Below the pieces are notes generated by a model. That model saw only the letters and a program-made list of their open reading frames with translations, was not told the DNA's origin and searched no databases. A stretch of 64,000 nucleotides of DNA from Elusimicrobiota bacterium (lineage in GTDB: Bacteria; Elusimicrobiota; JBDRON01). A program made the translations under genes and the position numbers. Where the stretch lies: the NCBI GenBank assembly GCA_043810025.1, contig JBDRON010000056.1, forward strand, positions 19,377 through 83,376, written 5' to 3'. Positions 9,394-63,413 of this stretch are shown piece after piece. Positions within the stretch are counted from its first letter, which is position 1. Each line of letters begins with the position of its first letter.

Positions 9394-9410
9394 ATCAACC
9401 GTATAATATT

Positions 9411-9505
9411 GGTCGTGAGTCATGAGTCTTGGGTTATGAGCTTGAAAGGAATCGATTCTTTTAGACTCAAGACTCATAACGCATGACTCAGGACTTGTAA
9501 CTTGC
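9411..9505. repeat. Family B palindrome, copy B2
   Basis: GGTCGTGAGTCATGAGTCTTGGGTTATGAGCTTGAAAGGAATCGATTCTTTTAGACTCAAGACTCATAACGCATGACTCAGGACTTG; between nuoK and nuoL. Confidence 0.7.
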
Positions 9506-11513: not shown

Positions 11514-11572
11514 GTAGGGCAGGGCTTTAGCTCTGCGTTTTTTAAAGATGCAAGCCTAAAGGCTTGCCCTAC
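11514..11572. repeat. Family C nested-hairpin element (GTAG...CTAC bounded), copy C1
   Basis: GTAGGGCAGGGCTTTAGCTCTGCGTTTTTTAAAGATGCAAGCCTAAAGGCTTGCCCTAC; outer stem GTAGGGCA/TGCCCTAC enclosing two inner hairpins; between nuoL and nuoM. Confidence 0.65.
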
Positions 11573-14527: not shown

Positions 14528-14650
14528 AGGAAATTAGAAGTTTGTTGAAGTGTTCCCCCTTTTGAAAGGGGGATGAAGGGGGATTTTAAAATATTGATAA
14601 AATCTCCCCTACCCCTCTTTTTAAAGAGGGAAAAAAACGTCACAGGTGTG
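14528..14650 (+). repeat. Family A triple-hairpin REP-like element, copy A1
   Basis: GAAATTAGAAGTTTGTTGAAGTGTT-CCCCCTTTTGAAAGGGGG-ATGAAGGGGGATTTT...AAATCTCCCCTA-CCCCTCTTTTTAAAGAGGG-AAAAAAACGTCACAG; three consecutive stem-loops; immediately downstream of nuoN. Confidence 0.7.
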
Positions 14651-14690
14651 TAAAGTTCTGAACGTAGCTCGGAACAACTTAGGGGGGATT

Positions 14691-15470: not shown

Positions 15471-15516
15471 GGAAGAAAATTCCTGGTTAGCGAGAACTGA
15501 TTTCTTGTGCTATGTG

Positions 15517-15580
15517 TTGTAGGGAACGGTTTTTTAAAGAGGGAAAAAAACGTTACAGACAGGTAAAGTTCCGAGCGAAG
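15517..15580 (+). repeat. Composite repeat: Family D head (GTTGTAGGGAACGG) fused to a Family A 3' tail (TTAAAGAGGGAAAAAAACGTTACAGACAGGTAAAGTTCCGAGCG)
   Basis: The tail matches A1 positions about 14620-14665 almost base for base; the head matches D1/D2. Confidence 0.55.
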
Positions 15581-15684
15581 TGAGGACTAACTTAATTGAT
15601 AAATGAAGGCAAAAAAGCTTTTTTGACTAACTTGTGGATACTGTGGATAAGGTTGTGGATAACTATTACATACAAAAGAACACA

Positions 15685-15770
15685 GGTCATGAGTTGTGGG
15701 TCGTGGGTTGTGAGCTTAAAAGAATCGAGTCTTTTAATCTCAAGACTCATGACTCATAACCCATGACTTA
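15685..15770. repeat. Family B palindrome, copy B3
   Basis: GGTCATGAGTTGTGGGTCGTGGGTTGTGAGCTTAAAAGAATCGAGTCTTTTAATCTCAAGACTCATGACTCATAACCCATGACTTA; upstream of bamA. Confidence 0.7.
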
Positions 15771-15895
15771 TTTCGGGAATTTCGCAGGCAATCGCGGTTC
15801 TAGGGATCATAGTTCTGGTTTGACTTTTGCTGTAAAAATGGTAAGATAAATTAAACTAAACTATTATAAATTGGATTACAAGGAGTTTACTTAAG

Positions 15896-18229
15896 ATGAA
15901 AAAGCTACTGGTTTATTTTAACATAATTTGTTTTTTGTTTGGTCTTTTTCCGACCGCTGTCTTCGCCGAGACCGTCGATGTCTACACTGGAAAAAAAATC
16001 CGGGCAATAGAGATTAAGGGAAATAGAAATGTTAAGGAGAGCGCTATCCGGGAAAAAATGAAGTTGAGTAAAGGTGATTTCTATAATCAAGGAAGTGTCG
16101 ATGAAGATATTCAAAAAATTAATGAATTGGGTTTGTTCGACGAGGTTAAGGTTGATCTGGAAGAAGTGAAGAAAGGGGTGAAACTGATTTATTATTTGGT
16201 GGAAAAACCGATTATTAAAAAAATTGAGTTTAAGGGTAATAAAAAATTTCCTAACCGCCGGTTAAAAGAAAAAATTGCCAGTAAAGAAGAGGAGTCTTAT
16301 AACAAAACCAGAGTTGAAGATGATCTTGGCAAGCTGATCATTTTTTACAAAGATGAAGGTTATAGCGAGGTTAAAGTCGAAGCTTTTCCGGCTGTCGATG
16401 AAAAAACAAATCAAGCGGTGATAACCTTTTTTATTCGGGAAGGCAAACAGGTTTTAGTTGATAAAGTCCTTTTGAGCGGAACAAAAGATTTTAGCGCCAA
16501 GAAAGTGCTTAAAGGGATGAAACTGCGCAGGAAAAAGGTTTTTAAAGAAGATACTCTGCGGGCGGATATCAAGGAGATAGAAAGTTTTTATAAAAATCGC
16601 GGGTATTTGCAAGTGACGGTTGTCGAACCACAGATTACTTACAATAAGGAGCGGACAAAAGTCAGTATCGAAATAAAAGTTGTTGAGGGCAGGAAATTCA
16701 GGTTTGGAGCTATTACTTTTGAAGGGAGCAGTTTGTACCCGGAAAAAAAATTATTGACTAACCTTACCTTTAAACCCGGGCAGATTTTTTCCCAGCAGGA
16801 ACTGGACAAAAGTGTGGAAAATGTTCATCAGCTTTATTATAGCAAAGGATATCTGCGCTCGTTGGTGGAAGCTAAACAAGATGTGCAAGAGATTGCCGGT
16901 ATTTTAAATGTGGCCGTCAATATTACTGAGGGCGGGATTGTTTATATCGATCGGATTTATATTGAAGGCAATACCTTCACCAAAGATTATGTGCTCCGCC
17001 GGGAACTGCTGGTTAAGGAAGGGGATCCGTTTGATTTAACTAAAATTAAACGCAGTCAGGAAAAACTTTACAATTTGGGATTTTTAAAAGAGGTGTCGAT
17101 AGACATTCAAGAAACACCGGTTGAGGATAAGGCCGACTTGGCCATTGATATTAAAGAAGACAAGCCGGGAATTTTAACCATGGGCGCGGGCTATTCTTCC
17201 GTGGACCGGTTTTCCGGAACCTTGCAGGTTTCCCATGTCAATATGTTTGGCCTGGGCCAGCGTCTTAACCTGCTCTGGGAGTTCGGCCAGCGCAAACAGA
17301 ATTATGAAATCGGTTTTACTGAGCCCTGGATCTTCAGTAACCCGATTTATGCCGAAAGTCCTTCGGCTTTGTTTCGTTGGTTAAATCGCCATCAAACCAC
17401 CGCCGGTTTCGGTGTTTTTAACACGATTCGCAAAAGGCAGTATGGCACGGAGTCCGATGCTTATAAAGAACAGCGCCGGGGTGGAGATTTGCGCTTGGGC
17501 CGCAGTTTTACTGATTTCGTTTCGGGAAACCTTACATACTCTTATGAAGAAATAAAGCTATTTGATTCTATCGTGACCGATGTTAAACCTTCTCTGGCGG
17601 TTACCTCCAGCATTTCGTCCGGGTTATCCCGGGATAGCCGCGATAACATTTTTGATGCGGCCCGCGGGTCCCGAAATAGTGTTTCAGTGGAACTGGCCGG
17701 CGGTCCGGTTGGCGGGAATGTGCATTTCTACCGGCCGAGCGTTACCTCTTCCTGGTTTTTTCCGACCTTTTGGAAGTTTGTGTTTTCCACCAATTTGCGC
17801 TTGGGTCTGATTCGCTCTTTTCCACCATCATCAGAAATACCGGTCTATGAGCGGTACTATGTGGGTGGGGCGGATACGGTGCGCGGCTATGACTACCGCG
17901 GGCAAATCGGCCCTCAGGAAGGCGGCAATATCATGAGCGTGGTGAATGCTGAATACAAGTTTCCTTTTGTCGAAGAAGGCGGTCGGACAATATTGCAGGG
18001 AGCCTTCTTCTTTGATTTGGGCGGCGCCTGGCGGAACTTTCGGGATATAAGGTTAGCTCTGGGTAACGAAGAACTGAATTGGAAAGCCGGGGTGGGTTTC
18101 GGGATCCGGATTTTTGTGATGGCGGTATTCCCGATCAGGCTGGACTGGGGCTATGGTTTAAATCATCGCCGGGACATTCAAAAAGCCAGCCGTCACCAGT
18201 TCTACTTTACCATCGGCCAGGTGTTTTAA
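15896..18229 (+). CDS. bamA: outer membrane protein assembly factor BamA
   Basis: 777 aa; N-terminal signal peptide, repeated POTRA-like segments (IEFKGNKKF..., ITFEGSSLY..., IYIEGNTFT...); C-terminal beta-barrel ending ...FYFTIGQVF; followed by skp-lpxD. Confidence 0.9.
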   Translation: MKKLLVYFNIICFLFGLFPTAVFAETVDVYTGKKIRAIEIKGNRNVKESAIREKMKLSKGDFYNQGSVDEDIQKINELGLFDEVKVDLEEVKKGVKLIYYLVEKPIIKKIEFKGNKKFPNRRLKEKIASKEEESYNKTRVEDDLGKLIIFYKDEGYSEVKVEAFPAVDEKTNQAVITFFIREGKQVLVDKVLLSGTKDFSAKKVLKGMKLRRKKVFKEDTLRADIKEIESFYKNRGYLQVTVVEPQITYNKERTKVSIEIKVVEGRKFRFGAITFEGSSLYPEKKLLTNLTFKPGQIFSQQELDKSVENVHQLYYSKGYLRSLVEAKQDVQEIAGILNVAVNITEGGIVYIDRIYIEGNTFTKDYVLRRELLVKEGDPFDLTKIKRSQEKLYNLGFLKEVSIDIQETPVEDKADLAIDIKEDKPGILTMGAGYSSVDRFSGTLQVSHVNMFGLGQRLNLLWEFGQRKQNYEIGFTEPWIFSNPIYAESPSALFRWLNRHQTTAGFGVFNTIRKRQYGTESDAYKEQRRGGDLRLGRSFTDFVSGNLTYSYEEIKLFDSIVTDVKPSLAVTSSISSGLSRDSRDNIFDAARGSRNSVSVELAGGPVGGNVHFYRPSVTSSWFFPTFWKFVFSTNLRLGLIRSFPPSSEIPVYERYYVGGADTVRGYDYRGQIGPQEGGNIMSVVNAEYKFPFVEEGGRTILQGAFFFDLGGAWRNFRDIRLALGNEELNWKAGVGFGIRIFVMAVFPIRLDWGYGLNHRRDIQKASRHQFYFTIGQVF

Positions 18230-18232
18230 TAG

Positions 18233-18328
18233 TGCAAAACGCAAAGCGCAAAACGCAAAATGCAAAGTCAAAAGCATCGAGTCTTTAAAAGTCCTTAAGT
18301 TTTGCGCTTTGCGCATTGAGTTTTACGC
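18233..18328. repeat. Family B-type palindrome, copy B4 (arms built from GCAAAAC heptamers)
   Basis: TGCAAAACGCAAAGCGCAAAACGCAAAATGCAAAGTCAAAAGCATCGAGTCTTTAAAAGTCC...TTTTGCGCTTTGCGCATTGAGTTTTACGC; same centre as B1-3 but different arm heptamers. Confidence 0.65.
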
Positions 18329-18358
18329 TATTATGTTTGTTGGGGGGGAGTCAAAAAT

Positions 18359-23159: not shown

Positions 23160-23180
23160 AAAAATAATTCGGATAGTAAT

Positions 23181-23265
23181 GTTAGTTGTAGGGAACGGTC
23201 GTGACCGTTCCGCTTTTGTCATGTAACAGAAATATAAGTTGTAGGGAAAGCATATCTGCGTTCCC
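23181..23265. repeat. Family D element, copy D2 (two GTTGTAGGGA units)
   Basis: GTTAGTTGTAGGGAACGGTCGTGACCGTTCCGC...GTTGTAGGGAAAGCATATCTGCGTTCCC; downstream of lpxI. Confidence 0.6.
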
Positions 23266-23287
23266 AGGTGAACCATAAAAATAGTCC

Positions 23288-23316
23288 TTGACAATACAAG
23301 TTATAACTTGTATACT
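23288..23316 (+). promoter_or_regulatory. sigma70-like promoter TTGACA-17-TATACT with a palindromic operator (CAAGTTATAACTTG) in the spacer, upstream of higB-like/higA-like
   Basis: Consensus -35 at 23288-93, 17-nt spacer that is itself a perfect 14-bp palindrome, -10 TATACT at 23311-16. Confidence 0.5.
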
Positions 23317-23340
23317 CTTATTAGAAATAAAGAGTAAAAG

Positions 23341-23688
23341 ATGCTGAAAAATATCTATTATTTTGTAGATGAACGGGGTGATAACCCGGTTAGAGAATTT
23401 ATAGATTCTTTGCCGATTAAAGAACGGGCAAAGATATTTGCTTACATTGAAGAATTAAGAAATCAGGGTCACAATTTGCGTAGGCCGATAGCGGATTATT
23501 TAGGTAACGATATTTATGAACTAAGACCTAAAAGCAATAGAATCTTTTATTTCTTCTTTTTAAAAGATAACGCGGTTTTGGTTCATGCCATAAAAAAGAA
23601 GACGGACAAAATTCCCAATGCCGATTTAAACTTAAGTATAAAAAGAAAAGGGTTGGTTGAGGAGTATGAACGAGTAGAAAAAATATAA
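23341..23688 (+). CDS. type II toxin, HigB-like / phage-related Gp49 (RelE/ParE superfamily)
   Basis: 115 aa, MLKNIYYFVDERGDNPVREFIDSLPIKERAKI...; followed 8 nt later by an XRE HTH gene (toxin-first HigBA arrangement). Confidence 0.68.
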   Translation: MLKNIYYFVDERGDNPVREFIDSLPIKERAKIFAYIEELRNQGHNLRRPIADYLGNDIYELRPKSNRIFYFFFLKDNAVLVHAIKKKTDKIPNADLNLSIKRKGLVEEYERVEKI

Positions 23689-23704
23689 TAGTGAGGTGAG
23701 CGGG

Positions 23705-24031
23705 ATGAAAAAAATTAAATTAGAAAAAATCGACGACCATTTAAACGCGGAATTAAAGAATGAAGAATTCAGAAGGAATTTTGAATTAGAAAGAGCTAAA
23801 GTATCGTTGGCTCAAAAAATAGCGGAGCTGAGACAGGATAAAAAACTGAAACAAATTGATCTCGCCAAGAAACTGCATGTTTCGCAGCAATTCATTTCCC
23901 TGATTGAAACTGCGCAAGAAAAGAATTTGACTCTGGAAACTTTAGTAAAAATTGCCAAGTCCTTGGGAAGAAGTGTCAAAATTTCTTTCCCCAAAGCCTC
24001 TGCCCAAGGTGCTCATCTCAAGATAGCATAA
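23705..24031 (+). CDS. HigA-like antitoxin, XRE-family HTH DNA-binding protein
   Basis: HTH region LRQDKKLKQIDLAKKLHVSQQFISLIE; GAGGTG RBS before ATG 23705. Confidence 0.68.
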   Translation: MKKIKLEKIDDHLNAELKNEEFRRNFELERAKVSLAQKIAELRQDKKLKQIDLAKKLHVSQQFISLIETAQEKNLTLETLVKIAKSLGRSVKISFPKASAQGAHLKIA

Positions 24032-24119
24032 TTTGTTTGAATACAAAGTAACAGATAAAAAAATACAGCCGACTAATTTTAGTTTAATTCCCTAGTTTAA
24101 GAATATAAGTAAGTTTAAT

Positions 24120-24593
24120 ATGAGTGAAGAAGAAAAATACGAGTACGATAGTAATATTTTGTCAATAAAGTATACAAAAATTACTGATACGATACCTGTT
24201 TCTGGTGCGAATACATCTACCAGTATATTTTGGGATCAAACAGAAATGCCTGATGCCGGAGTTCTTAAATTTTTAGAACCTTGTGGTCGGAATTGGAGAT
24301 TCGGAAAACTGGAAAATGAAATGAAGTATGTAGCGAGGGTGCACCACAAATTAAAATCAAATTCTAAAGGTAATTTCTATACTTTAATATGGAGTTGGAA
24401 AGATATTCATCAAGTAAAGGAGTGGCTTGAATTAGACGGTGTTGCAATAGACTTAAAAACAAAATTTGTTATTAGGCCAGGATGTTTAATCGCAATTGGG
24501 AATTTTAAGAAAAACAATAATCATCAAATTTATGTAAAAGAAAAAGAGGAATTTGTTCTTGAAATTACAGAAAGTACTACTAATATAGAATGA
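24120..24593 (+). CDS. hypothetical protein (ORF A of AT-rich island), translationally coupled to the next gene
   Basis: 157-aa ORF in a markedly AT-rich segment; 4-bp overlap (ATGA) with the downstream ORF; no recognisable motif. Confidence 0.5.
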   Translation: MSEEEKYEYDSNILSIKYTKITDTIPVSGANTSTSIFWDQTEMPDAGVLKFLEPCGRNWRFGKLENEMKYVARVHHKLKSNSKGNFYTLIWSWKDIHQVKEWLELDGVAIDLKTKFVIRPGCLIAIGNFKKNNNHQIYVKEKEEFVLEITESTTNIE

Positions 24594-25666
24594 AAACTTC
24601 TCCGATAAAACAATTACCAAACAATGACTATTTAATAAATCCTGGTGCTTCATTTGAAATGCATCTTTATAATACCGACATCAATACCGTAACCGAACTA
24701 GTTAATATTATGAAAAAAGGTGAGGAAGAAGGATCAGGAACTGGCGTTGTTAACTGTAAATTGTTGGAATTACTAGTAAAAAATAATGTTAGATGCCGTG
24801 AAATTGATTCTTATGTAAATGAATTTCGGCCACAATATATTCAAAATCTAAAAACATATTCTGGATTAAATGTTGACTGGCAGAGTATTAATGAAATTGA
24901 TATAAGTAGTATTCCAGAAGAAATCAGAAAAAAAGCAGTTGATGAGTTGCGCATAAAACCAGACACTAATATAGAGGTTTTGTTTAAACTTTATCCTTGT
25001 GATGATTCTGTGCCGATAGAAGTATTTAGGAAGTATCCCTTTAAAGTTATAGTAAAATATCTTAATGTTTGGGATCGGGGCAAAGAATTGAAAGTTATTC
25101 CTCTGGAACACCGAGATAGAAAAATTTACGAGAAAATGGTTGAATTGAATCTGTCTATGCAAGGGGAAGCAATTCCGCTTAAAGATATATTAGTGACTTT
25201 GAAATTATCTGAATTAAAGGAAATCGGTTTAAAGGTAAATACAGAGCCATCAAATAAGAAAGAAAAAGTTATTGAAAATTTACTGAGCAAAGAAGGTGTT
25301 GAAAAACAAATTCAAGGTAGTATTAATCTTAAAGACTATTTTAAACTTATTTCTATCGAACGAGAGTTTGGCTCCGATATATTCAGTAAATTAAATTCAT
25401 CCATTAAATATAATGAACTTAATGCAGACTTAATTGGGAGAACTTTTTTATTCTCTTATTACAATGATTCTAGGGATAATTCCTGGTCGAATCCAATATC
25501 TTCTGAACTAATCACAGGATATGAAATTTCAATGGTTTCCGATGCAAGATGTTGCCCTTACTGTAAAGATATGAAAGGAAAAAAGTTTGACAAAGTTAAT
25601 TGTCCTAAAATACCATTGCATTTGGCTTGTCGATGTGCGAAAGTCCCGCTAACAAAATATGGCTAA
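24590..25666 (+). CDS. hypothetical protein (ORF B) with SAP-like helix-extended-helix motif and C-terminal Mu-F/SPP1-gp7-like zinc-ribbon motif (CxYC...PLHxxCRC)
   Basis: 358 aa; LKDILVTLKLSELKEIGLKVNT...KKEKVIENLLSK resembles a SAP DNA-binding motif; C-terminus CCPYCKDMKGKKFDKVNCPKIPLHLACRCAKVPL resembles the conserved end of phage head-morphogenesis (Mu F) domains. Confidence 0.5.
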   Translation: MKTSPIKQLPNNDYLINPGASFEMHLYNTDINTVTELVNIMKKGEEEGSGTGVVNCKLLELLVKNNVRCREIDSYVNEFRPQYIQNLKTYSGLNVDWQSINEIDISSIPEEIRKKAVDELRIKPDTNIEVLFKLYPCDDSVPIEVFRKYPFKVIVKYLNVWDRGKELKVIPLEHRDRKIYEKMVELNLSMQGEAIPLKDILVTLKLSELKEIGLKVNTEPSNKKEKVIENLLSKEGVEKQIQGSINLKDYFKLISIEREFGSDIFSKLNSSIKYNELNADLIGRTFLFSYYNDSRDNSWSNPISSELITGYEISMVSDARCCPYCKDMKGKKFDKVNCPKIPLHLACRCAKVPLTKYG

Positions 25667-25702
25667 AGTATTTGAATAAAACACTGTATTAGGGGATTAA
25701 AT

Positions 25703-26155
25703 ATGTCGGGATCATTTTTATACATTGGAATTCATTTTATTTTTAGTACAAAAAATCGTGTGAACATAATTACTAGCGAAATAAAAGATAGGTTGTATTC
25801 CTATATTGGCGGAATAATAAAATCAATTAAAGGTATACCAATTGCTATAAATGGAATGCCTGATCATATCCATGTTTTTTGTATTGTATCACGGGAAATG
25901 ACCATTGCTGATTTTATGCGTATTGTTAAATCAAATTCATCAAAATGGTTGAATGAAACTTTTCCTGTTAAGCCAAAATTCCAATGGCAAGACGGATACG
26001 GTTCGTTTTCAGTCACTAAATCATCAGAAAATAAAATCATTGAATATGTAAAAAATCAAGAAGAACATCATAAACAAAAATCATTTCAGGATGAATTTAT
26101 TGAATATTTAAGATTGATGAAAATTGACTATGATGAAAGATATATATGGCAATAA
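25703..26155 (+). mobile_element. tnpA: IS200/IS605-family Y1 HUH transposase (TnpA) / REP-associated tyrosine transposase (RAYT)-like, solitary
   Basis: 150 aa; HUH motif MPDHIHVFCIV; C-terminal catalytic Tyr in EYVKNQEEHH (Y-x-x-NQ motif of IS200 TnpA/RAYT); no tnpB partner. Confidence 0.75.
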
Positions 26156-26400
26156 TACTCCGCCGCCCCGTTGGGGCTTATATTTTCATGGGTGATTATA
26201 GCGGGGATTACATCCCCGCCTATAATCCGCAATCCCTTCGGGATAATAAATTGAAAAAGATTGTAGTATGCTTTTATTTGTCCTGAAAGGACAACGGAAT
26301 ATAGGCGGGGGGCTTGCCCCCCGAAAATGAAATATTCCATGAACGATAAGCCCTGAAAGGGCGGAGGAAAAGCGCCCAAATTATTTATAAATTTTCAGTG
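26156..26400 (+). other. structured GC-rich hairpin cluster downstream of tnpA (possible IS end / REP-like hairpins / small RNA)
   Basis: Hairpins TATAGCGGGGATTACATCCCCGCCTATA (26195-26225), GTCCTGAAAGGAC, GGCGGGGGGCTTGCCCCCCG (about 26300-26322), GCCCTGAAAGGGC; the outer complement CTCCGCCGCCCC...GGGCGGAG frames the region. Confidence 0.45.
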
Positions 26401-26592
26401 TAATAAAAAGAGGTAAGCTATGGATTTCAAAATTTTATCTACTCACTCGTGGGGCGGAGATTTGACAGAAAAAAATTATTGGCCTAGAATCGGGGGAAAG
26501 TTTCCCTATTACGAAATTATCTGGTCGAAGGTTATAGCGCTCTTAACAAAGAGATCAGACAATTTACTTTTGGTTTAAAAAGGGGGGGTGTT

Positions 26593-27498
26593 ATGAAAAA
26601 TTTTTTTGAGAAAAATAAAATATTCTTGGGTATAATTATAGCCGGTTTGATGATTGCCGCAGCTATTTATTTTGGTTTAAATAAGCCGGCTGATAAAGAA
26701 AAATATTTATCATTATCGTCCTCGCCGTCTCCTGCCCAAAGTTTGGCGCCGGCTGAGGCTCTTGTCACTAAAGTTATCGATGGTGATACGATAATTGTTG
26801 AAGGCGGTTATAATGTCCGGCTTTTGGGTATTGATGCTGATGAGGCGGGTTATCCCTGTTACGAAGCAGCCAAAAAACGCTTAGAAGAATTGATTTTAAA
26901 TAAAACGGTGAGATTGGAAAAAGACCAAACCGATGTTGACCAATATAAAAGATATTTGAGGTATATTTTTCTTGACGACAAAAATATATGTTTAGAGTTG
27001 GTAAAAGAAGGCTTGGCAATTGCCAGATTTTATGAGCCGGATAGAAAATACAAAAACGAGATTGTTTCCGGCGAAAAAGAAGCGATTGAGAAAAAAGTTG
27101 GTTGCAAATGGTCCGCTTCCACCAATGTTTCGGCGGATAAATTATCTTACGAAAAAAACGAATTCTCCTATGAGAAATTAACCACGGGGAAGACCGGTTT
27201 AAAAGTAGTTGGCGCTTACCAATCAGGGAATTATTACGGAAGAGAAGTCATTGTGGAAGGAAAAGTAGTTGGCGCTTATCGCTCAAAAACAAATATAGTT
27301 TTCTTAAATTTTGATAAAACCTATCCCAATCAATATTTTGTCGGAGTTATTTTTAGTTCAGACCAGTATAAGTTTGTTGAGGCGCCGGAAAAATATTATG
27401 CGGGAAAAACCGTTAGAATCAAAGGAAAAATTAAGGAGTATCGCGGCAAACCGGAAATTATTATAAAAGACCCTTCCCAGATTGAGATAGGAAAATAA
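26593..27498 (+). CDS. membrane-anchored thermonuclease (SNase-like) with C-terminal OB-fold domain
   Basis: N-terminal TM; SNase core VIDGDTIIVEGGYNVRLLGIDADE...RYLRYIFLDDKN...; C-terminal OB-fold-like repeat (KVVGAY...KGKIKEYRGKPEIIIKD). Confidence 0.72.
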   Translation: MKNFFEKNKIFLGIIIAGLMIAAAIYFGLNKPADKEKYLSLSSSPSPAQSLAPAEALVTKVIDGDTIIVEGGYNVRLLGIDADEAGYPCYEAAKKRLEELILNKTVRLEKDQTDVDQYKRYLRYIFLDDKNICLELVKEGLAIARFYEPDRKYKNEIVSGEKEAIEKKVGCKWSASTNVSADKLSYEKNEFSYEKLTTGKTGLKVVGAYQSGNYYGREVIVEGKVVGAYRSKTNIVFLNFDKTYPNQYFVGVIFSSDQYKFVEAPEKYYAGKTVRIKGKIKEYRGKPEIIIKDPSQIEIGK

Positions 27499-27735
27499 AC
27501 TCATATATGCAAAGTCAAAATAAAAAAGGGAAAAATCTTTTTACAGTATCAAAAATTAGAGGGTATTGATTGGTTATGAAACTCACTAAAAAAGATTCAG
27601 AGACAATTTGTGATGTTTTTTTGTTTTCTGGTAAATATGATCTTATGGATGGAAATTGATAATGAGTAAAGAGACAATAGAAAAGCTCACAAATACAATT
27701 GCTCAAAATACCGAACCTAAAATTCAGCCGCGTAT

Positions 27736-27764
27736 TGTATATAACTGCGCATAATTAAAGGGAC
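27736..27764. repeat. left arm of a 29-bp perfect inverted repeat (TATATAACTGCGCATAATTAAAGGGACAT)
   Basis: Exact reverse complement found at 27958-27986; the pair flanks a 193-bp segment containing Family A copy A3. Confidence 0.8.
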
Positions 27765-27817
27765 ATCAGCAAAAGTGTCATAGCAACGAAAGCTGGTATC
27801 CAGAAAGTGTGATATAC

Positions 27818-27957
27818 AGAAATTTGAATGTTTGTTTTGCGTATATTCCCCCTTAAAAAAGGGGGACACAGGGGGATTTTGAAAATTAGAAATATTGTCT
27901 AAATCTCCCCTACCCCTCTTTTTAAAAGAGGGGAAAAAATACCACAGAACGAAACTC
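27818..27957 (+). repeat. Family A triple-hairpin element, copy A3 (inside the 29-bp IR pair)
   Basis: GAAATTTGAATGTTTGTTTTGCGTATATT-CCCCCTTAAAAAAGGGGG-ACACAGGGGGATTTTGAAAATTAGAAATATTGTCTAAATCTCCCCTA-CCCCTCTTTTTAAAAGAGGGG-AAAAAATACCACAG. Confidence 0.7.
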
Positions 27958-27986
27958 ATGTCCCTTTAATTATGCGCAGTTATATA
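27958..27986. repeat. right arm of the 29-bp perfect inverted repeat; contains the start codon of the downstream wHTH gene
   Basis: ATGTCCCTTTAATTATGCGCAGTTATATA; ATG 27972 (MRSYIVEK...) lies inside it. Confidence 0.8.
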
Positions 27987-28196
27987 GTCGAAAAAATAGA
28001 GGATAAAAACATAATTGTAGTTGATGTAAATGAATCTATTTATTTAAGAGAACATAAAGAAATAACTAGAAATGAATGTATGGAATTATTGAATTTAACG
28101 AGAGATATTGCAATTAGAGAACTTTTATCGTTGAAGAGAAAGGGAATTATTAAACAAATTGGTAAAGGGAAGAACATTTATTATGTACTTGTCTAA
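27972..28196 (+). CDS. small winged-helix DNA-binding protein (possibly a gene fragment)
   Basis: 74 aa; ...ITRNECMELLNLTRDIAIRELLSLKRKGIIKQIGKGKNIYYVL resembles C-terminal wHTH domains of Fic/AAA-type regulators; the start is embedded in the inverted repeat. Confidence 0.4.
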   Translation: MRSYIVEKIEDKNIIVVDVNESIYLREHKEITRNECMELLNLTRDIAIRELLSLKRKGIIKQIGKGKNIYYVLV

Positions 28197-28256
28197 CGAA
28201 AATGCGACGAATCCGATTCGTCTCAGGCGGATTGATTTTTGGTTTTGCGGAGTGAT

Positions 28257-35236: not shown

Positions 35237-35400
35237 GAATTTAAGAAACACTTCAGCCAGGGGAAGTCCGTGGGAATCGGACACTGCCCCGCAACGGTGA
35301 TTCCTTCCGCCATCAGGCGGATTGGATAAGTCCGGTCTACTGTCTGAAGCATAAATCCTAAAAAGTGTTTTTAGGATTGCCTGCGCGGGCGGGATGGGTT
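35237..35400 (+). promoter_or_regulatory. cobalamin (AdoCbl) riboswitch
   Basis: B12-box-like core ...AGGGGAAGTCCGTGGGAATCGGACACTGCCCCGCAACGGTGA... (the conserved ...GCCACTG... region appears as CACTGCC); 5' UTR of the cobO-btuFCD-cobCUTS operon. Confidence 0.75.
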
Positions 35401-36023: not shown

Positions 36024-36683
36024 ATGAGCAAAATAGTTTATTTAGTAAAAAGAAGTTTGTTGTTAAGTTTTGCGTTTTGCGCTTTGCACTTTACGCTTGT
36101 TTTCGCGGCTTCACCGCAAAGGATTGTCTCTTTGTCGCCTTCCGTAACGGAGATACTTTTTTTGCTTGGTTTGGGGGATAAAGTGGTCGGGGTCACCACT
36201 TCCTGCGATTATCCGCCGCTGGCCAAAGAAAAATTTAAAGTTGGTGATTTTTCCAATCCGAACCTGGAAAAAATTGTTGCGCTTCAACCGGATCTGGTTT
36301 TTGTTACCGACGGCATACAGGAGCCGCTGGCGCGGAAATTGAGGCAGTTTGGTTTAAGGGTGGAGGTGGTTGCCCCCCAGAATATTGAAGGGATTCTCCG
36401 CTCATTTGTTTCAATTGGTGAATCTACCGGAACAAGCGGGCCGGCGATGAGGTTGGTAAAAGAAATTCGCCGCAGGTTGAATAAGGTTGAGGTGAAAGTT
36501 GCCGCTGTTCCCCGGGAGAAAAGGCCGAAAATTTTTCTGGAGATTTGGCCTAAACCCTTGATGACGGTCGGCAAAGACTGTTTTGTTGACCTTGACCCGG
36601 ATTTATTGCTGCGCACCGGACCGCGTTTTGTCCAGGGGGTAGAAGATTTGTACCGGATTTTCTACCCGGATGATAAACCATGA
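36024..36683 (+). CDS. btuF: periplasmic cobalamin-binding protein (ABC substrate-binding, BtuF-like)
   Basis: Signal peptide, then PQRIVSLSPSVTEILFLLGLGDKVVGVT (BtuF/FecB family). Confidence 0.78.
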   Translation: MSKIVYLVKRSLLLSFAFCALHFTLVFAASPQRIVSLSPSVTEILFLLGLGDKVVGVTTSCDYPPLAKEKFKVGDFSNPNLEKIVALQPDLVFVTDGIQEPLARKLRQFGLRVEVVAPQNIEGILRSFVSIGESTGTSGPAMRLVKEIRRRLNKVEVKVAAVPREKRPKIFLEIWPKPLMTVGKDCFVDLDPDLLLRTGPRFVQGVEDLYRIFYPDDKP

Positions 36684-37378: not shown

Positions 37379-37459
37379 TAGCCATTTTTGTGGTAGCCGC
37401 AACCTTTAGGTGCGTTTCAAATTATGCGCAGGCTAAAGCCTGCGGCTACCAAGTGATAC

Positions 37460-37560
37460 TGATGTTATGTGTGTTCCCCTTTTAGAAAGGGGGATAAGGG
37501 GGATTTAGAAAATAATTACTAAATCTCCCCTAACCCCTCTTTATAAAAGAGGGGAATAAG
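37460..37560 (+). repeat. Family A triple-hairpin element, copy A4
   Basis: TGATGTTATGTGTGTT-CCCCTTTTAGAAAGGGGG-ATAAGGGGGATTTAGAAAATAATTACTAAATCTCCCCTAA-CCCCTCTTTATAAAAGAGGGG-AATAAG; between btuC and btuD. Confidence 0.7.
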
Positions 37561-37578
37561 AAATGAGGTGCCTAACTA

Positions 37579-39457: not shown

Positions 39458-40513
39458 ATGGAAAAAGTGGAAGAAATTGTAGTGAAAATTGCCGGGCTTG
39501 ATTCGGATCTGCTAAGGAGGACACAAGAAAGGTTGGATAATCTTACCAAGCCGCCGGGCAGTTTGGGAAGGCTGGAAGAGTTGGCCAGGATGATCGTCGG
39601 AATGACCGGAAAAGCTAACCCCTCTTTGGACAACAAGGTTATTTTTACCCTTGCTGCTGATCATGGAGCGGCGGAGGACGGGGTCAGCGCTTATCCCCGG
39701 GAAGTGACGGCTCAGATGGTTTATAATTTTTTAAATGGCGGGGCGGCGATCAATGTTTTGGCTAAGCATGCGGGGGCGAGGGTGGTGGTCGTGGATCTGG
39801 GAGTGGCCGTCGATTTAAAACCTCATCCGGAGTTAATGATTAAAAAAATAAATTATGGGACAAAAAACATGCGCCAGGGGCCGGCGATGAGCCGTGGGGA
39901 AGCGATAAAATCCATCGAAGCCGGGAAGGAAATTTTTCAGGTGGCGGCGGAGAAAGGGATTGATATCGCCGGGACCGGAGATATGGGCATTGGGAATACG
40001 ACGGCCAGCGCGGCTTTAACGGCTGTTTTTACCGGCCGGGCTGTGGAGGATGTTACCGGCCGCGGTACCGGCCTTGAGGATCAGGCTTTAAAAAACAAAG
40101 TTGCCTTTATTGCTGAGGCGATAGGCTTAAACAAGCCGGATAAAAACGATCCGTTGGATGTGCTGGCTAAACTGGGCGGGTTTGAGATCGGGGGGTTGGC
40201 CGGAATAATTTTGGCGGCTGCTTCCCGAAGGGTGCCGGTGGTGATTGATGGTTTTATTTCCGGGACGGCGGCTTTGCTGGCTTATCAGCTAGAGCCAAAA
40301 GTTAAGGATTATCTGATCGCTTCGCATTGTTCGGTAGAAAAGGGGCATAAAATAATTCTTGATTTTATTGGTTTAAAACCGTTTTTGGATTTGAATTTAA
40401 GGTTAGGCGAAGGAACGGGAGCGGCCTTGGGCATCAGTCTGGCCGAAGCTAGTATAAAAATATTAACCCAAATGGCCACCTTTGCCAAAGCCGGAGTTTC
40501 CACAAAAAAGTAG
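39458..40513 (+). CDS. cobT: nicotinate-nucleotide--dimethylbenzimidazole phosphoribosyltransferase
   Basis: CobT family (KPPGSLGRLEELA..., GIGNTTASAAL, ...ALGISLAEASIKIL); AAGGAG RBS before ATG 39458 (track start 39374 is an over-extension). Confidence 0.88.
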   Translation: MEKVEEIVVKIAGLDSDLLRRTQERLDNLTKPPGSLGRLEELARMIVGMTGKANPSLDNKVIFTLAADHGAAEDGVSAYPREVTAQMVYNFLNGGAAINVLAKHAGARVVVVDLGVAVDLKPHPELMIKKINYGTKNMRQGPAMSRGEAIKSIEAGKEIFQVAAEKGIDIAGTGDMGIGNTTASAALTAVFTGRAVEDVTGRGTGLEDQALKNKVAFIAEAIGLNKPDKNDPLDVLAKLGGFEIGGLAGIILAAASRRVPVVIDGFISGTAALLAYQLEPKVKDYLIASHCSVEKGHKIILDFIGLKPFLDLNLRLGEGTGAALGISLAEASIKILTQMATFAKAGVSTKK

Positions 40514-40516
40514 TAG

Positions 40517-40590
40517 TTGTGGGTCATGGGTCTTGAGCTCAAAAGACTCGATTCCTTTAAAATCACAACCCATGACACACAACTCAGAAC
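40517..40590. repeat. Family B palindrome, copy B5
   Basis: TTGTGGGTCATGGGTCTTGAGCTCAAAAGACTCGATTCCTTTAAAATCACAACCCATGACACACAACTCAGAAC; between cobT and cobS. Confidence 0.7.
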
Positions 40591-40616
40591 CATTACTTTA
40601 GGGAGCTTGTTTTATC

Positions 40617-41383: not shown

Positions 41384-41432
41384 GTGATGTGATTTGTGTT
41401 CCCTCTTTATAAAAGAGGGAATGAAAAAAATC
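41384..41432 (+). repeat. internally deleted Family A element (head + hairpin 3 only), copy A8
   Basis: GTGATGTGATTTGTGTT-CCCTCTTTATAAAAGAGGG-AATGAAAAAAATCGC. Confidence 0.5.
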
Positions 41433-43347: not shown

Positions 43348-43462
43348 TTTTGGGGGATCAGTTGTATTAAAATGTCCCCCTTTGATAAAGGGGGATTAAG
43401 GGGGTTGGGTTTTATATTTTTAAACTCCCCTAACCCCTCTTTAATAAAGAGGGGAATTAAAG
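43340..43462 (+). repeat. Family A triple-hairpin element, copy A5
   Basis: GAATTGATTTTGGGGGATCAGTTGTATTAAAATGT-CCCCCTTTGATAAAGGGGG-ATTAAGGGGGTTGGGTTTTATATTTTTAAACTCCCCTAA-CCCCTCTTTAATAAAGAGGGG-AATTAAAG. Confidence 0.7.
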
Positions 43463-43479
43463 CTCCGATAAATAAAAAT

Positions 43480-45995: not shown

Positions 45996-47132
45996 ATGCG
46001 CGAGCCAAAAATACTTTTTCTTTATATTTCGGTTAGTTCCGGCCATCAACAGGCGGCTGAATCAATTCAAAAAGCGATAAAAGAAATTGTCCCGGAAGCA
46101 AAGACTTTAGGGTTGGATTCCTTTAATTATGCCTATCCTTTTGTGGGCAAATTTATTGCCGGCACTTATCTGCAAATTGTTAAACGGACACCATTTCTTT
46201 GGGATTATCTTTACGATAACCCCGATGTGGTTACCGCCACGCAGGAAATTCGCGAGGTGTTAAACCGCCTTAATTCCAGGAAATTCAAAAAATTGCTTGC
46301 CTCGTTTCATCCTTCGGCCGTTGTTTGTACCCAGGCTGTTCCCTGTAGTGTGGTGGCTGCCGCGAAACGACACCGGAAGATTAACGTGCCGTTGATCGCC
46401 GTGATTACGGATTTTGCCGCCCATGCTTACTGGGTTTATAAAGAAGTCGATGCTTATGTCGTGGCTAATGAGAGTACCCGGCGGGAACTGATGAAAAAAG
46501 GCATCCCCGAAGAAAAAATTTATCTCTTTGGCATCCCGATCAATCCGGTGTTTAATCAGCAGGTCGGAAAAGAAGACGCCCGGCTCAGTTTGGGGTTTAA
46601 ACCCAATTTGCCGGTCTTATTGGTAATGGGCGGCAGTCAAGGGCTGGGGCCGATCGAGAGTATACTCTCCGCCCTGGATTGGATATCCATTCCTTTTCAG
46701 GTGGCGGTAATTACCGGACTGAATGAAAAATTGCGGCGTTCTTTAAAAAAAGATTTTGCCAAAAGTATTCATCGGTTTCACATTTTTGGTTATATCGATG
46801 GGATTGACAAGTTTATGGAAGCGGCGGATATTTTGATTACCAAACCCGGTGGATTAACGTCTTCAGAGGCCTTGGCAAAAGGTTTGCCGATGATTATTGT
46901 CAATCCGATACCCGGTCAGGAGGAAAGAAACAGCAGTTATTTAATTAAACATGGTGTTGCTGAACGCGCGGATAATCTTGAAGAATTGGCTCATTATGTA
47001 AGTGATTTTTTTTCTCATCCGGTAAAACTGTCCCGGATGCGCCATCAAGCCCTCTCCATGGCCCAGCCTGATGCGGCTTATAATACGGCTTTATTGGTTT
47101 TGAAACAAATCGGCTGGCCGACAATAGTGTAA
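45996..47132 (+). CDS. glycosyltransferase family 28, MGDG-synthase/UgtP-like (diacylglycerol glycosyltransferase)
   Basis: N-terminal KILFLYISVSSGHQQAAESI (MGDG_synth domain signature) and C-terminal GT-B fold (LVMGGSQG..., ITKPGGLTSSEALAKGLPMIIVNPIPGQEERN). Confidence 0.75.
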   Translation: MREPKILFLYISVSSGHQQAAESIQKAIKEIVPEAKTLGLDSFNYAYPFVGKFIAGTYLQIVKRTPFLWDYLYDNPDVVTATQEIREVLNRLNSRKFKKLLASFHPSAVVCTQAVPCSVVAAAKRHRKINVPLIAVITDFAAHAYWVYKEVDAYVVANESTRRELMKKGIPEEKIYLFGIPINPVFNQQVGKEDARLSLGFKPNLPVLLVMGGSQGLGPIESILSALDWISIPFQVAVITGLNEKLRRSLKKDFAKSIHRFHIFGYIDGIDKFMEAADILITKPGGLTSSEALAKGLPMIIVNPIPGQEERNSSYLIKHGVAERADNLEELAHYVSDFFSHPVKLSRMRHQALSMAQPDAAYNTALLVLKQIGWPTIV

Positions 47133-47190
47133 AACGCAAAGCGCAAAACTTAAAGTCAAAAGATAAAAGAATCAAGTTAGTCGCTTTCGG
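47129..47190. repeat. half Family B element (GCAAAAC-type arm + AAAAGAATCAAG centre, right arm missing), copy B8
   Basis: GTAAAACGCAAAGCGCAAAACTTAAAGTCAAAAGATAAAAGAATCAAGTTAGTCGC, abutting Family A copy A6. Confidence 0.5.
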
Positions 47191-47204
47191 CGCTGACTTT
47201 TAAA

Positions 47205-47340
47205 ATTTCCTTCTTCTTTTGTTCCCCTCTTTTATAAAGAGGGGTTAGGGGAGATTTGGTAATTATTATTGTCTAAATCCCCCTTATCCCCCTTTAAAAA
47301 AGGGGGAAATTAGATTTTTGCTACACATTGAATTTCCTTA
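47205..47340 (-). repeat. Family A triple-hairpin element, copy A6 (reverse orientation)
   Basis: Reverse complement reads GGAAATTCAATGTGTAGCAAAAATCTAATTT-CCCCCTTTTTTAAAGGGGG-ATAAGGGGGATTTAGACAATAATAATTACCAAATCTCCCCTAA-CCCCTCTTTATAAAAGAGGGG-AACAAAAG. Confidence 0.7.
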
Positions 47341-47393
47341 ACTTCGAGTTTTCAAAAGTTTTTAAACTTTGTGTTTTTCGCTAAATTATAACA

Positions 47394-48242
47394 ATGTCGG
47401 TTTATTTAATCTATAAATTTATTTCTGTTCTGGTCCGCCTTTTGCCTCGGAGAATTAGTTATTTATTGGCTGATCTGGCGTCTACGATCAGTTGGTTGAT
47501 CAGCAGAAAAATAAGGTTGAACATTCAAAGCAACTTAAGTCGGATTTTAGGTGTTAGCGAAAAAAAATGCCTGCTAAAAAGCCGAAAGGCAGTGGTGTAT
47601 TTTACCCAGTATCTGGTGGATTTTTTTTTATTCCCGCACCTGGACGAAAAGAAATTTTTAGAAATAGTTACACCGCCCAGCCGGGATAAAGTAGAAGATT
47701 TATTCAAACAAAAAAAGGGGATCATCGCTCTTTCCGGCCATTTAGGACATTGGGAATTAGGGGCGTTGGTCTTAGGTTTGTGGGGATTCCCGGTTAATGT
47801 GATTTATTTGCCGCATCAAGATCAAAGGATTGACCGGCTTTTTCTCCAAACCCGCTTGCGGCAGATTCATTGGGTGCCTGTGGGCAGCGCTTTGCGCCGG
47901 GGGATGAAGGTTTTGAAGCATGGGGAAATCTTGGCTACCGGCGGAGATTTGGTTTATGGCGAGGGCGGAGTGGAAATAAATTTCTTAGGAAAACCGGCGC
48001 GGTTTCCGACCGGTCCGGCCCTCCTTTCCATCAGAACAGGAGCGCCGATTTTAGTGGCGTTTTTTGTCCGGGATAGTCAAGGCAACTACCGGGGAATTAT
48101 GGAAGAGCCGATTTATCCCCTGGCCAATAACGATCAGAAAAATGAAGCCTATAGAATTACCAAAGAGTTTGTTAAAATCTTAGAGAGGTATGTGTACAAA
48201 TATCCGGAACAATGGCATATTTTTCAAAAATTTTGGCTTTAG
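47394..48242 (+). CDS. lipid A biosynthesis late acyltransferase (LpxL/HtrB-family lysophospholipid acyltransferase)
   Basis: LPLAT fold with HX4E-like motif SGHLGHWELG (compare HFGNWE of LpxL); 282 aa. Confidence 0.65.
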   Translation: MSVYLIYKFISVLVRLLPRRISYLLADLASTISWLISRKIRLNIQSNLSRILGVSEKKCLLKSRKAVVYFTQYLVDFFLFPHLDEKKFLEIVTPPSRDKVEDLFKQKKGIIALSGHLGHWELGALVLGLWGFPVNVIYLPHQDQRIDRLFLQTRLRQIHWVPVGSALRRGMKVLKHGEILATGGDLVYGEGGVEINFLGKPARFPTGPALLSIRTGAPILVAFFVRDSQGNYRGIMEEPIYPLANNDQKNEAYRITKEFVKILERYVYKYPEQWHIFQKFWL

Positions 48243-52023: not shown

Positions 52024-52082
52024 TGTAGGGCAAGCCTTTAGGCTTGCGTTTCTAAAACCGCAGGGCTAAAGCCCTGCCCTAC
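52024..52082. repeat. Family C nested-hairpin element, copy C2 (approximately the reverse complement of C1)
   Basis: GTAGGGCAAGCCTTTAGGCTTGCGTTTCTAAAACCGCAGGGCTAAAGCCCTGCCCTAC. Confidence 0.65.
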
Positions 52083-60408: not shown

Positions 60409-60535
60409 GAATTCCCTTCCCCTTAAGGCTGGGTTTCCCCCTTTTTAAAGGGGGATCAAGGGGGATTTTACGACGATAAAAATCCTCCCTAACCCTCCTT
60501 TACAAAGGAGGGAATAACTAAAAAAACCGCGTTTT
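60408..60535 (+). repeat. Family A triple-hairpin element, copy A7 (compensatory stem-3 variant)
   Basis: ...TTT-CCCCCTTTTTAAAGGGGG-ATCAAGGGGGATTTTACGACGATAAAAATCCTCCCTAA-CCCTCCTTTACAAAGGAGGG-AATAACT; stem 3 reads CCCTCCTTT/AAAGGAGGG here versus CCCCTCTTT/AAAGAGGGG elsewhere. Confidence 0.7.
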
Positions 60536-63310: not shown

Positions 63311-63408
63311 AGTCGTAGTCTTGAGCCATGGGTCTTGAGTCTTGAGTCTTGAGTTTAAAAGAATCGATTCCTTTAAACTCAGAACCCATGACACATAACG
63401 CATGACCC
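63311..63408. repeat. Family B palindrome, copy B6
   Basis: GTCGTAGTCTTGAGCCATGGGTCTTGAGTCTTGAGTCTTGAGTTTAAAAGAATCGATTCCTTTAAACTCAGAACCCATGACACATAACGCATGACC; between the HK stop and the RR start within a minus-strand operon. Confidence 0.7.
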
Positions 63409-63413
63409 GTTAG

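Follow-up and report, generated by a model that had tools for sequence, protein, structure and literature searches.

The 64-kb stretch analyzed here (the window, taken at its full length) belongs to the chromosome of a metagenome-assembled Elusimicrobiota genome, in which genes are densely packed and lie nearly all on the + strand. One of its intergenic gaps, of 261 nt (47133-47393), separates a gene for a monogalactosyldiacylglycerol (MGDG)-synthase-like protein from an acyltransferase gene and holds two unrelated repeats, designated Family A and Family B. Family B forms a long hairpin with arms of tandemly repeated heptamers (GCAAAAC/GCAAAGC), and Family A, judged by its sequence, is a pair of intrastrand triplex motifs. 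The composite at 47129-47340 is in itself an ordinary repeat mosaic, in which a triplex-motif pair is mixed with heptamer hairpins and repetitive extragenic palindromic (REP)-like units. In the explanation that we favor and regard as probable, the composite joins two unrelated intergenic repeats, both prone to turnover, and a segment most likely came in at, or formed at, the tip of the B hairpin.

A Mosaic of Families A and B between Two Genes

The 5' side of the mosaic (47123-47177, + strand) consists of the left heptamer arm of Family B (GCAAAAC/GCAAAGC) and the left part of its center, AAAAGAATC. It matches the B copy at 18228-18282 (82% over 55 nt, E=8e-10), and Tandem Repeats Finder reports period 7 at 47131-47149. 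This left part covers the final three codons and the stop of the MGDG-synthase-like gene, whose product ends in ...GWPTIV in the window and in ...GWPVVP in the closest relative. Further downstream lies a complete, reversed copy of Family A (47222-47309, - strand), complementary to 37476-37566 (56 nt at 91% and 46 nt at 89%). It is an inverted pair of triplex-motif units, CCCCTCTTT/AAAGAGGGG/GGGGAGATT at 47224-47256 (+) and TCCCCCTTT/AAAGGGGGA/AGGGGGATT at 47275-47307 (-), with 9/9 compatible triplets in each, and 84 nt separate its end (47309) from the next ATG. The original prediction, made from the letters of the window, had a half B element directly followed by an inverted A copy; the left arm and center of B and the inverted A are indeed present, but they are not adjacent, 44 nt (47178-47221, +) standing between them. 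This spacer contains a small hairpin and AATTTCCTT (47204-47212) and has no significant match elsewhere in the window. A second spacer follows A (47310-47342, +); it carries AATTTCCTT again, at 47331-47339, and has no match elsewhere in the window.

Beyond the second spacer, 47343-47390 (+) is a candidate for the remainder of Family B, comprising a center-right part, TCGAGTTTTCAAAAG, and a degenerate right arm, CTTTGTGTTTTTCGCTAAATTAT, which align with the center-right part and right arm of the 18228 copy (~71% over 49 nt). The center of B is accordingly divided: AAAAGAATC ends at 47173 and TCGAG begins at 47343, so that AAAAGAATC stands on one side of the intervening segment and TCGAGTTTTC on the other. 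In the minimum free energy fold of the gap, the B left arm (47118-47150) pairs with the distal stretch and encloses the three hairpins of A. The duplex of B-left with the distal stretch reaches -23.8 kcal/mol (z ~-3.9) and ranks ~21 of 12,792 sequence windows, those with a better duplex energy being mostly true B arms. The claim that A had replaced the right arm of B is thus probably wrong, given a candidate right arm downstream of A, and the arrangement is suggestive of a Family B that was interrupted by A, not halved. That A lies truly nested inside B, at the tip of B, as opposed to simply abutting it, is in our estimate narrowly probable, and the most likely history would have an A-bearing segment of ~169 nt come into the tip of the B hairpin or form there.

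Family A as an Intrastrand Triplex Motif

Family A is ~90 nt long, forms three hairpins and is present in six full copies in the 64 kb, all of them intergenic. Besides the reversed copy in the mosaic, there are five on the + strand: 14553-14640; 27846-27942, inside a miniature inverted-repeat transposable element (MITE)-like element (27738-27986); 37474-37563, 24 nt downstream of a GTAG...CTAC REPIN-like doublet (37393-37449) that consists of paired inverted REPs; 43374-43463; and 60435-60521, whose right unit is a compensated variant (CCCTCC/GGAGGG/GGGAGG). Two patterns made for the family find 5 and 4 matches in the window vs 0 in 100 shuffles.

Each A unit is built from a pyrimidine arm, a purine arm and a mirror-image third strand. 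The G-rich box located 3' of each hairpin mirrors the purine arm and does not complement it, a T standing in for an A in some cases (GAGGGG..GGGGAG; GGAGGG..GGGAGG; GGAGAAGG..GGTTGAGG; GGGGAGG..GGTGGGG). Behind the G run, a conserved ATT makes up the third-strand portion lying over the A-T end of the stem. In the six full window copies, each of the 12 units has 7-10 of 7-10 compatible triplets, with a loop 1 of 1-4 nt and a loop 2 of 2-6 nt. The same rule holds in other genomes, where a scan of one genome per species with a left-half pattern found Family A units in at least 119 loci outside the window: hairpins with internally interrupted arms are followed by a mirror box in 83 cases and by a direct copy in only 10, and at least nine distinct arm variants, among the loci listed, are each accompanied by a matching box. 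Covariation of this three-way kind is characteristic of an intramolecular purine-motif triplex (G·G-C, A·A-T, T·A-T). The ITxF class definition specifies a pyrimidine (Y) arm, a purine (R) arm and a third strand, joined in G·G-C, A·A-T and T·A-T triplets, with a stem of 6-15 nt and loops of 1-6 nt. In its blocks, its loops and its occurrence as intergenic multi-copy pairs, Family A is, as far as sequence defines the class, a member of the BoxC/PIT/triplex-motif (TM) elements.

This class was first described as BoxC in E. coli in 1992, later as PIT elements and then as triplex motifs, TM or TMECO (Bergler, 1992; Hoyne et al., 2000; Holder et al., 2015, PMC4666352). Triplex motifs are intergenic and often form inverted pairs; the loci that carry them are more rearranged, and deletions in paired motifs still leave a hairpin (Holder et al., 2015). 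The E. coli motif forms a stable triplex as single-stranded DNA (ssDNA), as seen by circular dichroism or nuclear magnetic resonance, whereas purine-motif triplexes are not formed in RNA (Holder et al., 2015). The TMECO pattern, CCCTCNCCC N3-6 GGGNGAGGG N3 GGGNGAGGG, is not matched by Family A, whose window units are CCCCCTTT/AAAGGGGG/GGGGGATT and the CCCCTCTTT/AAAGAGGGG/GGGGAGATT form given above; it belongs to the same class, outside the TMECO subfamily.

The loci found in the scan span a GC content of 36-69%. Among the matches listed, they come from Desulfobacterota, Gamma- and Betaproteobacteria, Chloroflexota, Nitrospirota, Nitrospinota, Omnitrophota, the candidate phyla radiation (CPR), Spirochaetota, Deinococcota and others; Family A is not lineage-specific. 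The unit occurs in these genomes singly or in head-to-head or tail-to-tail pairs, and a BLAST search of plasmids with the A consensus gave two weak matches. As a triplex-motif pair, Family A links this uncultured Elusimicrobiota genome to a class known since 1992. In several other taxa (loci L070, L011, L073, L085 and L104), tandem 6-7-nt repeats, or small hairpins composed of such repeats, stand between the A halves or after the unit; the association of triplex motif and heptamer array is therefore recurrent, with a nesting order opposite to that in the window. Additionally, a Nitrospirales chromosome (L040, 5211-6281) carries a tandem array of ~270-nt units, each of which opens with an A-type triplex motif.

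Fused, Truncated and Nested Copies Elsewhere in the Window

Two further composites had been proposed in the original prediction, and both are borne out. All three composites lie exactly at the given positions or only a few bases away, and the match of every component exceeds chance by a wide margin. At 15513-15580, where the head of a Family D element was said to be fused to an A tail, the D head (a GTAG REP-like sequence, GTTGTAGGGAACGGT) occupies 15516-15530 (+) as the exact 15-mer also found at 9033 and 23185 (3 matches in the window vs 0.04 expected). It is cut 2 nt short of the center of its 20-nt palindrome and passes straight into the stem-3 loop, 3' arm and A-rich tail of Family A, followed by 45 nt in common with the coaX leader 3' of the A copy at 14553 (15531-15594, +). 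The A-derived part is longer than proposed, reaching 15594, and is 80% identical over 64 nt to 14618-14681, at the 3' side of the A copy at 14553. On the A side, the cut falls at the start of the T run that enters the loop of the third hairpin, and both breaks are therefore near hairpin tips. The triplet parse of 15531-15594 finds no third-strand box. The 64-nt direct repeat formed by 14618-14681 and 15531-15594 brackets coaX and could be either a local duplication or a longer A subfamily.

At 41384-41432, Family A was said to have lost stems 1 and 2. The remnant consists of the stem-3 hairpin and tail (41399-41430, +); it is 86% identical (41401-41429) to stem 3 and tail of the copy at 37535-37563, stems 1 and 2 and both third-strand boxes are deleted, and only 2/10 triplets are compatible. 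A 5' flank typical of A, ..GATGTGATTTGTGTT (..GTGTT; cf. A_37471), is joined directly to the third hairpin. A better reading of the remnant is that slippage between the two CCCC(T)CTTT arms of a single A element caused a deletion and left a plain hairpin, in agreement with the hairpin-preserving deletions of paired triplex motifs (Holder et al., 2015).

With regard to where the junctions fall, the original prediction named hairpin loops and GTAG/CTAC as the places to check. Hairpin loops hold in part: breaks lie at or near tips in two of the three composites (the D/A fusion and the B center), and the third, at 41400, is better read as a deletion. GTAG/CTAC is not found at the junctions; beside an imperfect palindrome, this tetranucleotide is limited to Family D (GTTGTAGGGAACGG...) and Family E (GTAGGGCAGGGC...) and is absent from A, B and C.

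An independent case of nesting is provided by the A copy at 27846, which lies within the MITE-like element at 27738-27986 (249 nt). Its terminal inverted repeats are 32 nt long (97%), TA stands at either end as a target duplication, and the element interrupts an open reading frame (ORF): once 247 nt are taken out, 95 codons (27662 to ~28195) read through again, and the junction is spanned by an AlbA_2 match below threshold.

Gain or Loss against the Closest Relative

The closest relative reached, a Logan assembly, has kept the gene order of the window, and the amino-acid identity is 77% for MGDG synthase and 69% for BamA. In this assembly, the stop of the MGDG-synthase gene and the ATG of the acyltransferase gene are 3 nt apart; the 261-nt gap and the mosaic in it are absent, and the contig concerned (L120) has no copy of any of the families A to E. 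Likewise, no Family B element follows bamA on the relative's other contig (L121). On the upstream side of bamA, a simple heptamer hairpin precedes a conserved cluster of DnaA-box-like repeats in the relative, and the window has a Family C copy after that cluster. Repeats present in one genome and absent at the corresponding site of the other have been gained or lost and are not static, in line with the original prediction that these are not static regulatory sequences. These differences show turnover, to which no date can be attached.

Triplex Motifs Bracket DUF559 Endonuclease Genes in Other Genomes

When the ORFs near the A loci of other genomes were clustered, the only small family of note was DUF559 (Pfam PF04480, E=1e-34; PDB relative 3hrl), a Vsr-like PD-(D/E)XK endonuclease; ABC ATPases, the largest cluster of neighboring genes, were set aside as background. 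Each of the three DUF559 genes from A loci is enclosed by an A-type element, whose left half precedes the ATG by 20-60 nt and whose right half is located at the stop, and the same layout was found at four loci chosen by protein similarity alone (P0345, P0245, P0355 and P0324). Genes of this DUF559 clade thus stand between a left and a right A half in 7/7 cases (loci L040, L047, L117, L256, L264, L275 and L277). The G-rich third-strand box of the left motif (GGGGGA/GGAGG) is located 5-9 nt before the DUF559 start, like a ribosome-binding site (L256, 1478-1503; L264, 1480-1503; L275, 585-603; L277, 585-603), and probably doubles as the Shine-Dalgarno sequence of the gene. The right motif overlaps or directly abuts the stop and so sets the end of the protein; at L256 the ORF reads through the motif. 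The bracketed genes are wedged among unrelated neighbors, for instance in an efflux system, where one of them separates the membrane-fusion gene from the ATPase gene. In Smithella (L264), heptamer repeats, a gene-less A (~80% identical to that of the window) and a DUF559 cassette abut, forming a mosaic of the same kind as in the window.

More distant DUF559 genes on viral contigs show the same architecture, including the mirror rule, with other sequences. Under a strict motif definition that also required the right orientation, a flanking triplex motif was found at 8/19 DUF559 loci selected by protein vs 2/600 control windows; the control set included one degenerate DUF559 that also has a motif. 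A published survey of programmed inversions found DUF559 genes enriched among genes flanked by inverted repeats. In E. coli K-12, the DUF559 gene ycjD (L274, 1351000-1351830) adjoins fabI and carries a degenerate motif over its stop as well as a duplicated 3' fragment, and a canonical BoxC lies ~170 nt downstream of ycjD, before fabI. BoxC was reportedly first described at fabI. The stretch around ycjD is kept to at least 80% in 3346/5426 complete E. coli genomes. In O157:H7 (L278), a TetR and RND efflux island stands in place of the ycjD stretch, with a breakpoint ~45 nt from the BoxC position; O157:H7 was considered as an empty site for ycjD and set aside, since the locus is polymorphic but the island is unrelated and gives no clean test. 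Literature searches returned no connection of DUF559 or ycjD with BoxC, PIT or triplex motifs, and no mobility gene reported for triplex motifs.

It is conceivable, and we put it forward tentatively as somewhat short of probable, that BoxC/PIT/triplex-motif pairs, including Family A, are gene-less MITE-like derivatives of a compact selfish DUF559 cassette whose nuclease acts on the ends. Counting against it, no DUF559 ORF occurs in the 64-kb window, where the A copies are gene-less and none brackets a cassette; for the Elusimicrobiota genome, we thus infer the DUF559 link from other organisms. If the proposal is true, a nuclease that recognizes or cuts hairpin or triplex ends in ssDNA would drive cross-phylum spread, local instability, nesting and truncation, supplying the mobility function that earlier studies of the motif sought without success. 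It would also give DUF559, a very large family of "unknown function", its first functional hypothesis. The presence of DUF559 between the same two halves in unrelated bacteria makes the question of spread testable, namely whether the protein binds or cuts these ends.

Origin of the Composites

As to mechanism, we infer that folding of ssDNA into hairpins and triplexes during replication would stall synthesis and favor slippage, template switches and breaks located at, or close to, the tips of hairpins, and that such breakage would yield truncated and fused forms of the repeats. Replication stalling or slippage has been proposed at triplex motifs (Holder et al., 2015). The D/A fusion and the 41400 remnant would then be breakage or deletion products of the same structures as in the B/A mosaic. 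New copies of A could be generated by a DUF559 nuclease that is encoded elsewhere and acts in trans on the ends, followed by repair-mediated copying, and gene-less A pairs would be deletion derivatives of the DUF559 cassette.

Several observations weigh against the entry of an A-bearing segment at the tip of B. The B right arm 3' of A does not reach significance by BLAST, its support coming from folding and duplex energy, and the 44-nt spacer aligns weakly (~66%) to the right arm of the 18228 B copy, which would be an alternative right arm directly before A. No clean target duplication surrounds A, AATTTCCTT occurring on both sides at 10-20 nt off the motif ends. The A copies of the window are 76-84% identical, no closer to each other than to copies from Smithella and Methylococcaceae (71-80%), and no recent burst is visible, contrary to the suggestion that these repeats were recently active; what the copies conserve is the triplex stems. 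No in vivo triplex signal was obtained for the E. coli motifs, and no transposase or integrase was found near them (Holder et al., 2015, PMC4666352). Moreover, the relative used for comparison is distant (69-77% amino-acid identity), and its empty site could reflect loss. Finally, A and a non-A family share an intergenic gap four times vs ~3 expected (hypergeometric p=0.32); with co-occurrence at chance level and A lacking a target duplication, the hairpin insertion preference that had been put forward is not demonstrated. This chance-level sharing, the missing BLAST significance and the absence of a clean target duplication would all be expected if the families had landed or persisted independently in scarce non-coding space, with neither hairpin targeting nor true nesting, and the tight gene packing, which leaves only ~35 gaps of at least 50 nt, favors the same chance juxtaposition. 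Against chance stand the D/A junction, a base-precise fusion within two hairpins and not a side-by-side arrangement, the conserved B center, seemingly split on either side of the A-bearing segment, and the distal sequence, which pairs with the B left arm (z ~-3.9); in addition, clusters of heptamers, A and DUF559 recur in unrelated genomes. Chance juxtaposition is possible, if on the whole unlikely.

Rather unlikely, too, is that the repeats are old residents and that the composites arose without any mobility, through deletions, template switches and local duplications at stable hairpins and triplexes. Triplex motifs have been tied to local rearrangement and hairpin-preserving deletions, with no mobility genes (Holder et al., 2015, PMC4666352), the 41400 remnant has the form expected of a deletion between direct CCCC(T)CTTT repeats, the 64-nt repeat on either side of coaX has the look of a local duplication and the A copies have diverged. 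Yet instability alone makes no new copies at unrelated loci, and the near-identical triplex-motif stems across phyla and across a GC range of 36-69%, the presence or absence of repeats at orthologous sites and the endonuclease gene that other genomes carry between the two A halves argue for horizontal and intragenomic spread. If the elements were instead static functional sequences, such as terminators, RNA stabilizers or protein-binding sites, with the composites as functional modules, their location between co-directional genes, the start of B at stop codons, the shared orientation of 5/6 A copies and the ability of the G-rich box to act as a ribosome-binding site for DUF559 in other genomes would find an explanation. 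Their absence at the orthologous sites of the relative, with genes 3 nt apart, renders this very improbable, as do the lack of an Rfam family match, the functionally unrelated flanking genes, the inability of purine-motif triplexes to form in RNA and the absence of promoter or terminator activity of PIT/BoxC in the earlier work cited by Holder et al. (2015, PMC4666352). Least credible of all is that repeat-induced chimeric joins created the fusions during assembly: the source is a metagenome-assembled contig and the relative's contigs break at repeats, but the relative keeps the gene order at all composite sites (ECF sigma, MGDG synthase, acyltransferase and the next genes; coaX then bamA), and the junctions lie in gaps of 100-400 nt between the expected genes. 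Segment entry or origin at the tip of B therefore remains the preferred account of the mosaic.

Comparison with Known Systems

BoxC/PIT/TMECO elements resemble Family A in their pyrimidine arm, purine arm and mirror purine/T third strand (class II purine motif) with short loops, as well as in being strictly intergenic and multi-copy, in forming inverted pairs, in deletions that leave a hairpin and in their rearrangement-prone loci. They differ in sequence, TMECO being CCCTCNCCC..GGGNGAGGG..GGGNGAGGG and Family A being CCCCCTTT/AAAGGGGG/GGGGGATT plus the CCCCTCTTT variant. Whereas TMECO was reported from proteobacterial genomes (PMC4666352), the host here belongs to Elusimicrobiota. The TMECO paper also reported no mobility function, whereas in other genomes the A halves bracket DUF559 genes. 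MITEs are likewise short, non-coding, multi-copy elements with inverted ends, and Family A looks as if it derived from a gene-bearing cassette by loss of the gene; unlike MITEs, it has neither target-site duplication nor transposase, and its ends are structured triplex motifs. The classical MITE of the window is the 27738-27986 element, with its terminal inverted repeats and TA duplication.

The REP, bacterial interspersed mosaic element (BIME) and REPIN-RAYT (REP-associated tyrosine transposase) systems of Proteobacteria were reportedly described by Gilson, by Bachellier, by Nunvar in 2010 and by Bertels and Rainey in 2011. Their short palindromic units, single or in head-to-head and tail-to-tail doublets and in mosaics with other repeats, are paralleled here, as is the single-copy nuclease or transposase gene flanked by units, and Families D and E share the GTAG head. 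Family A differs in having no GTAG/CTAC and in its associated gene, which encodes a PD-(D/E)XK Vsr-like nuclease and not a Y1 HUH transposase. Cyanobacterial short tandemly repeated repetitive (STRR) heptamers and nested small dispersed repeats are said to have been described by Mazel in 1990 and by Elhai in 2008. The arms of B and C are likewise tandem heptamers, and small repeats lie inside other repeats. Unlike STRR sequences, the B and C arrays form long hairpins around a conserved 18-nt center, their host is not a cyanobacterium and similar (GCAAAGC)n hairpins are widespread in metagenomes. DUF559, for its part, shares the Vsr-like PD-(D/E)XK fold class with homing endonuclease genes and Vsr-fold nucleases (Vsr; I-Bth0305I; PDB 3hrl), and its small ORF is similarly wedged between or inside unrelated operons. 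In contrast to homing endonucleases, DUF559 has no known cleavage site, homing event or intron/intein context, and, unlike their typical genes, it has structured inverted repeats at both ends.

Repeat Inventory and Genomic Setting

Self-comparison and direct reading of the gaps identified at least five intergenic repeat families in the window, A to E, and many of the ~35 gaps of at least 50 nt are occupied by repeats. The full Family B hairpin (18228-18332, +) begins at the bamA stop codon and is self-complementary (71% over 106 nt). A B-type right arm is present at 36056-36097 (+; 86% over 35 nt to 18295-18329). It lies within the signal-peptide codons of an ORF starting at 36024, downstream of an adenosylcobalamin (AdoCbl) riboswitch (35238-35379); in the relative, a (CTTAACC)n run occurs in the signal-peptide coding sequence of an OmpH-like gene (L121, 3030-3059), at the contig end. 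In a metagenome scan, the B arm pattern was found in at least 120 loci of unrelated organisms with GC 24-69%, none of which, among the matches listed, has C, D or E. This pattern is in effect a (GCGCAAA)n microsatellite, and as a lineage marker it was rejected in favor of a widespread microsatellite-like hairpin. Hairpins with (GCAAAGC)n/(GTAAAGC)n heptamer arms are common in the metagenome contigs L122-L241 (GC 24-69%), and the low-GC contigs L124, L138, L192 and L215 also carry a longer triplex motif, CCTCCCCCTCCC..GGGAGGGGGAGG..GGTGGGGGAGGG.

Family C has the same 18-nt center as Family B, AAAAGAATCGAGTCTTTT, with different heptamer arms, and is present in five copies, at 15682-15771 (+), 6867-6952, 9405-9498, 40509-40592 and 63311-63410; the center common to B and C has 16 matches vs 4.1 expected. 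Tandem Repeats Finder detects period 7 in every B and C arm, which makes them STRR-like heptamers. In the C hairpins (15685-15771 and the other copies), arm-to-arm mismatches are mostly G.T on the + strand, which fits either selection on the fold of the + strand transcript or ssDNA or a strand-biased C-to-T mutation. REP and REPIN elements typically have a GTAG head, and so do Families D and E. Family D consists of GTTGTAGGGAACGG and the 20-nt palindrome (9033-9062, +; second copy at 23185-23214; variant at 23238-23268), and Family E is a REPIN-like doublet, GTAGGGCAGGGC...GCCCTAC (11514-11572; second copy at 52025-52082 in the opposite orientation), with 4 exact matches vs 0.15 expected. At the gathering threshold, Rfam gave no match to the repeats, the only match being the AdoCbl riboswitch elsewhere in the window; in E-value mode, 47100-47400 gave a sub-threshold scatter over unrelated families, mostly precursors of eukaryotic microRNAs and snoRNAs. 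A full-text literature search with the repeat sequence found only unrelated primer matches. Elements of this kind account for many spurious small ORFs, changed gene ends and contig breaks in metagenomes.

The window encodes one Y1 transposase (25703-26155) of the IS200 family (NCBIfam NF033573, 69 bits), which scores 21 bits with the RAYT model against a cut-off of 80 and has no D or E copy at its flanks. As a RAYT partner for D and E it was therefore rejected. A 437-nt hairpin-rich gap lies 3' of this gene. The surrounding region, 23160-28240, is of low GC (31-36% at 24-28 kb) and mobile-element-like in content: it comprises a Gp49-like/helix-turn-helix (HTH) pair, an SPP1 gp7-like domain protein, the IS200 transposase, a staphylococcal-nuclease-like protein and the MITE, and two tandem D units stand at its left edge. 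Upstream of bamA, three close DnaA-box-like repeats, TGTGGATAA (15622-15665), form the cluster that is kept in the relative (L121, 498-531). The GC skew is positive throughout the window, which makes this cluster not origin-like; it may be a DnaA-regulated promoter or titration site.

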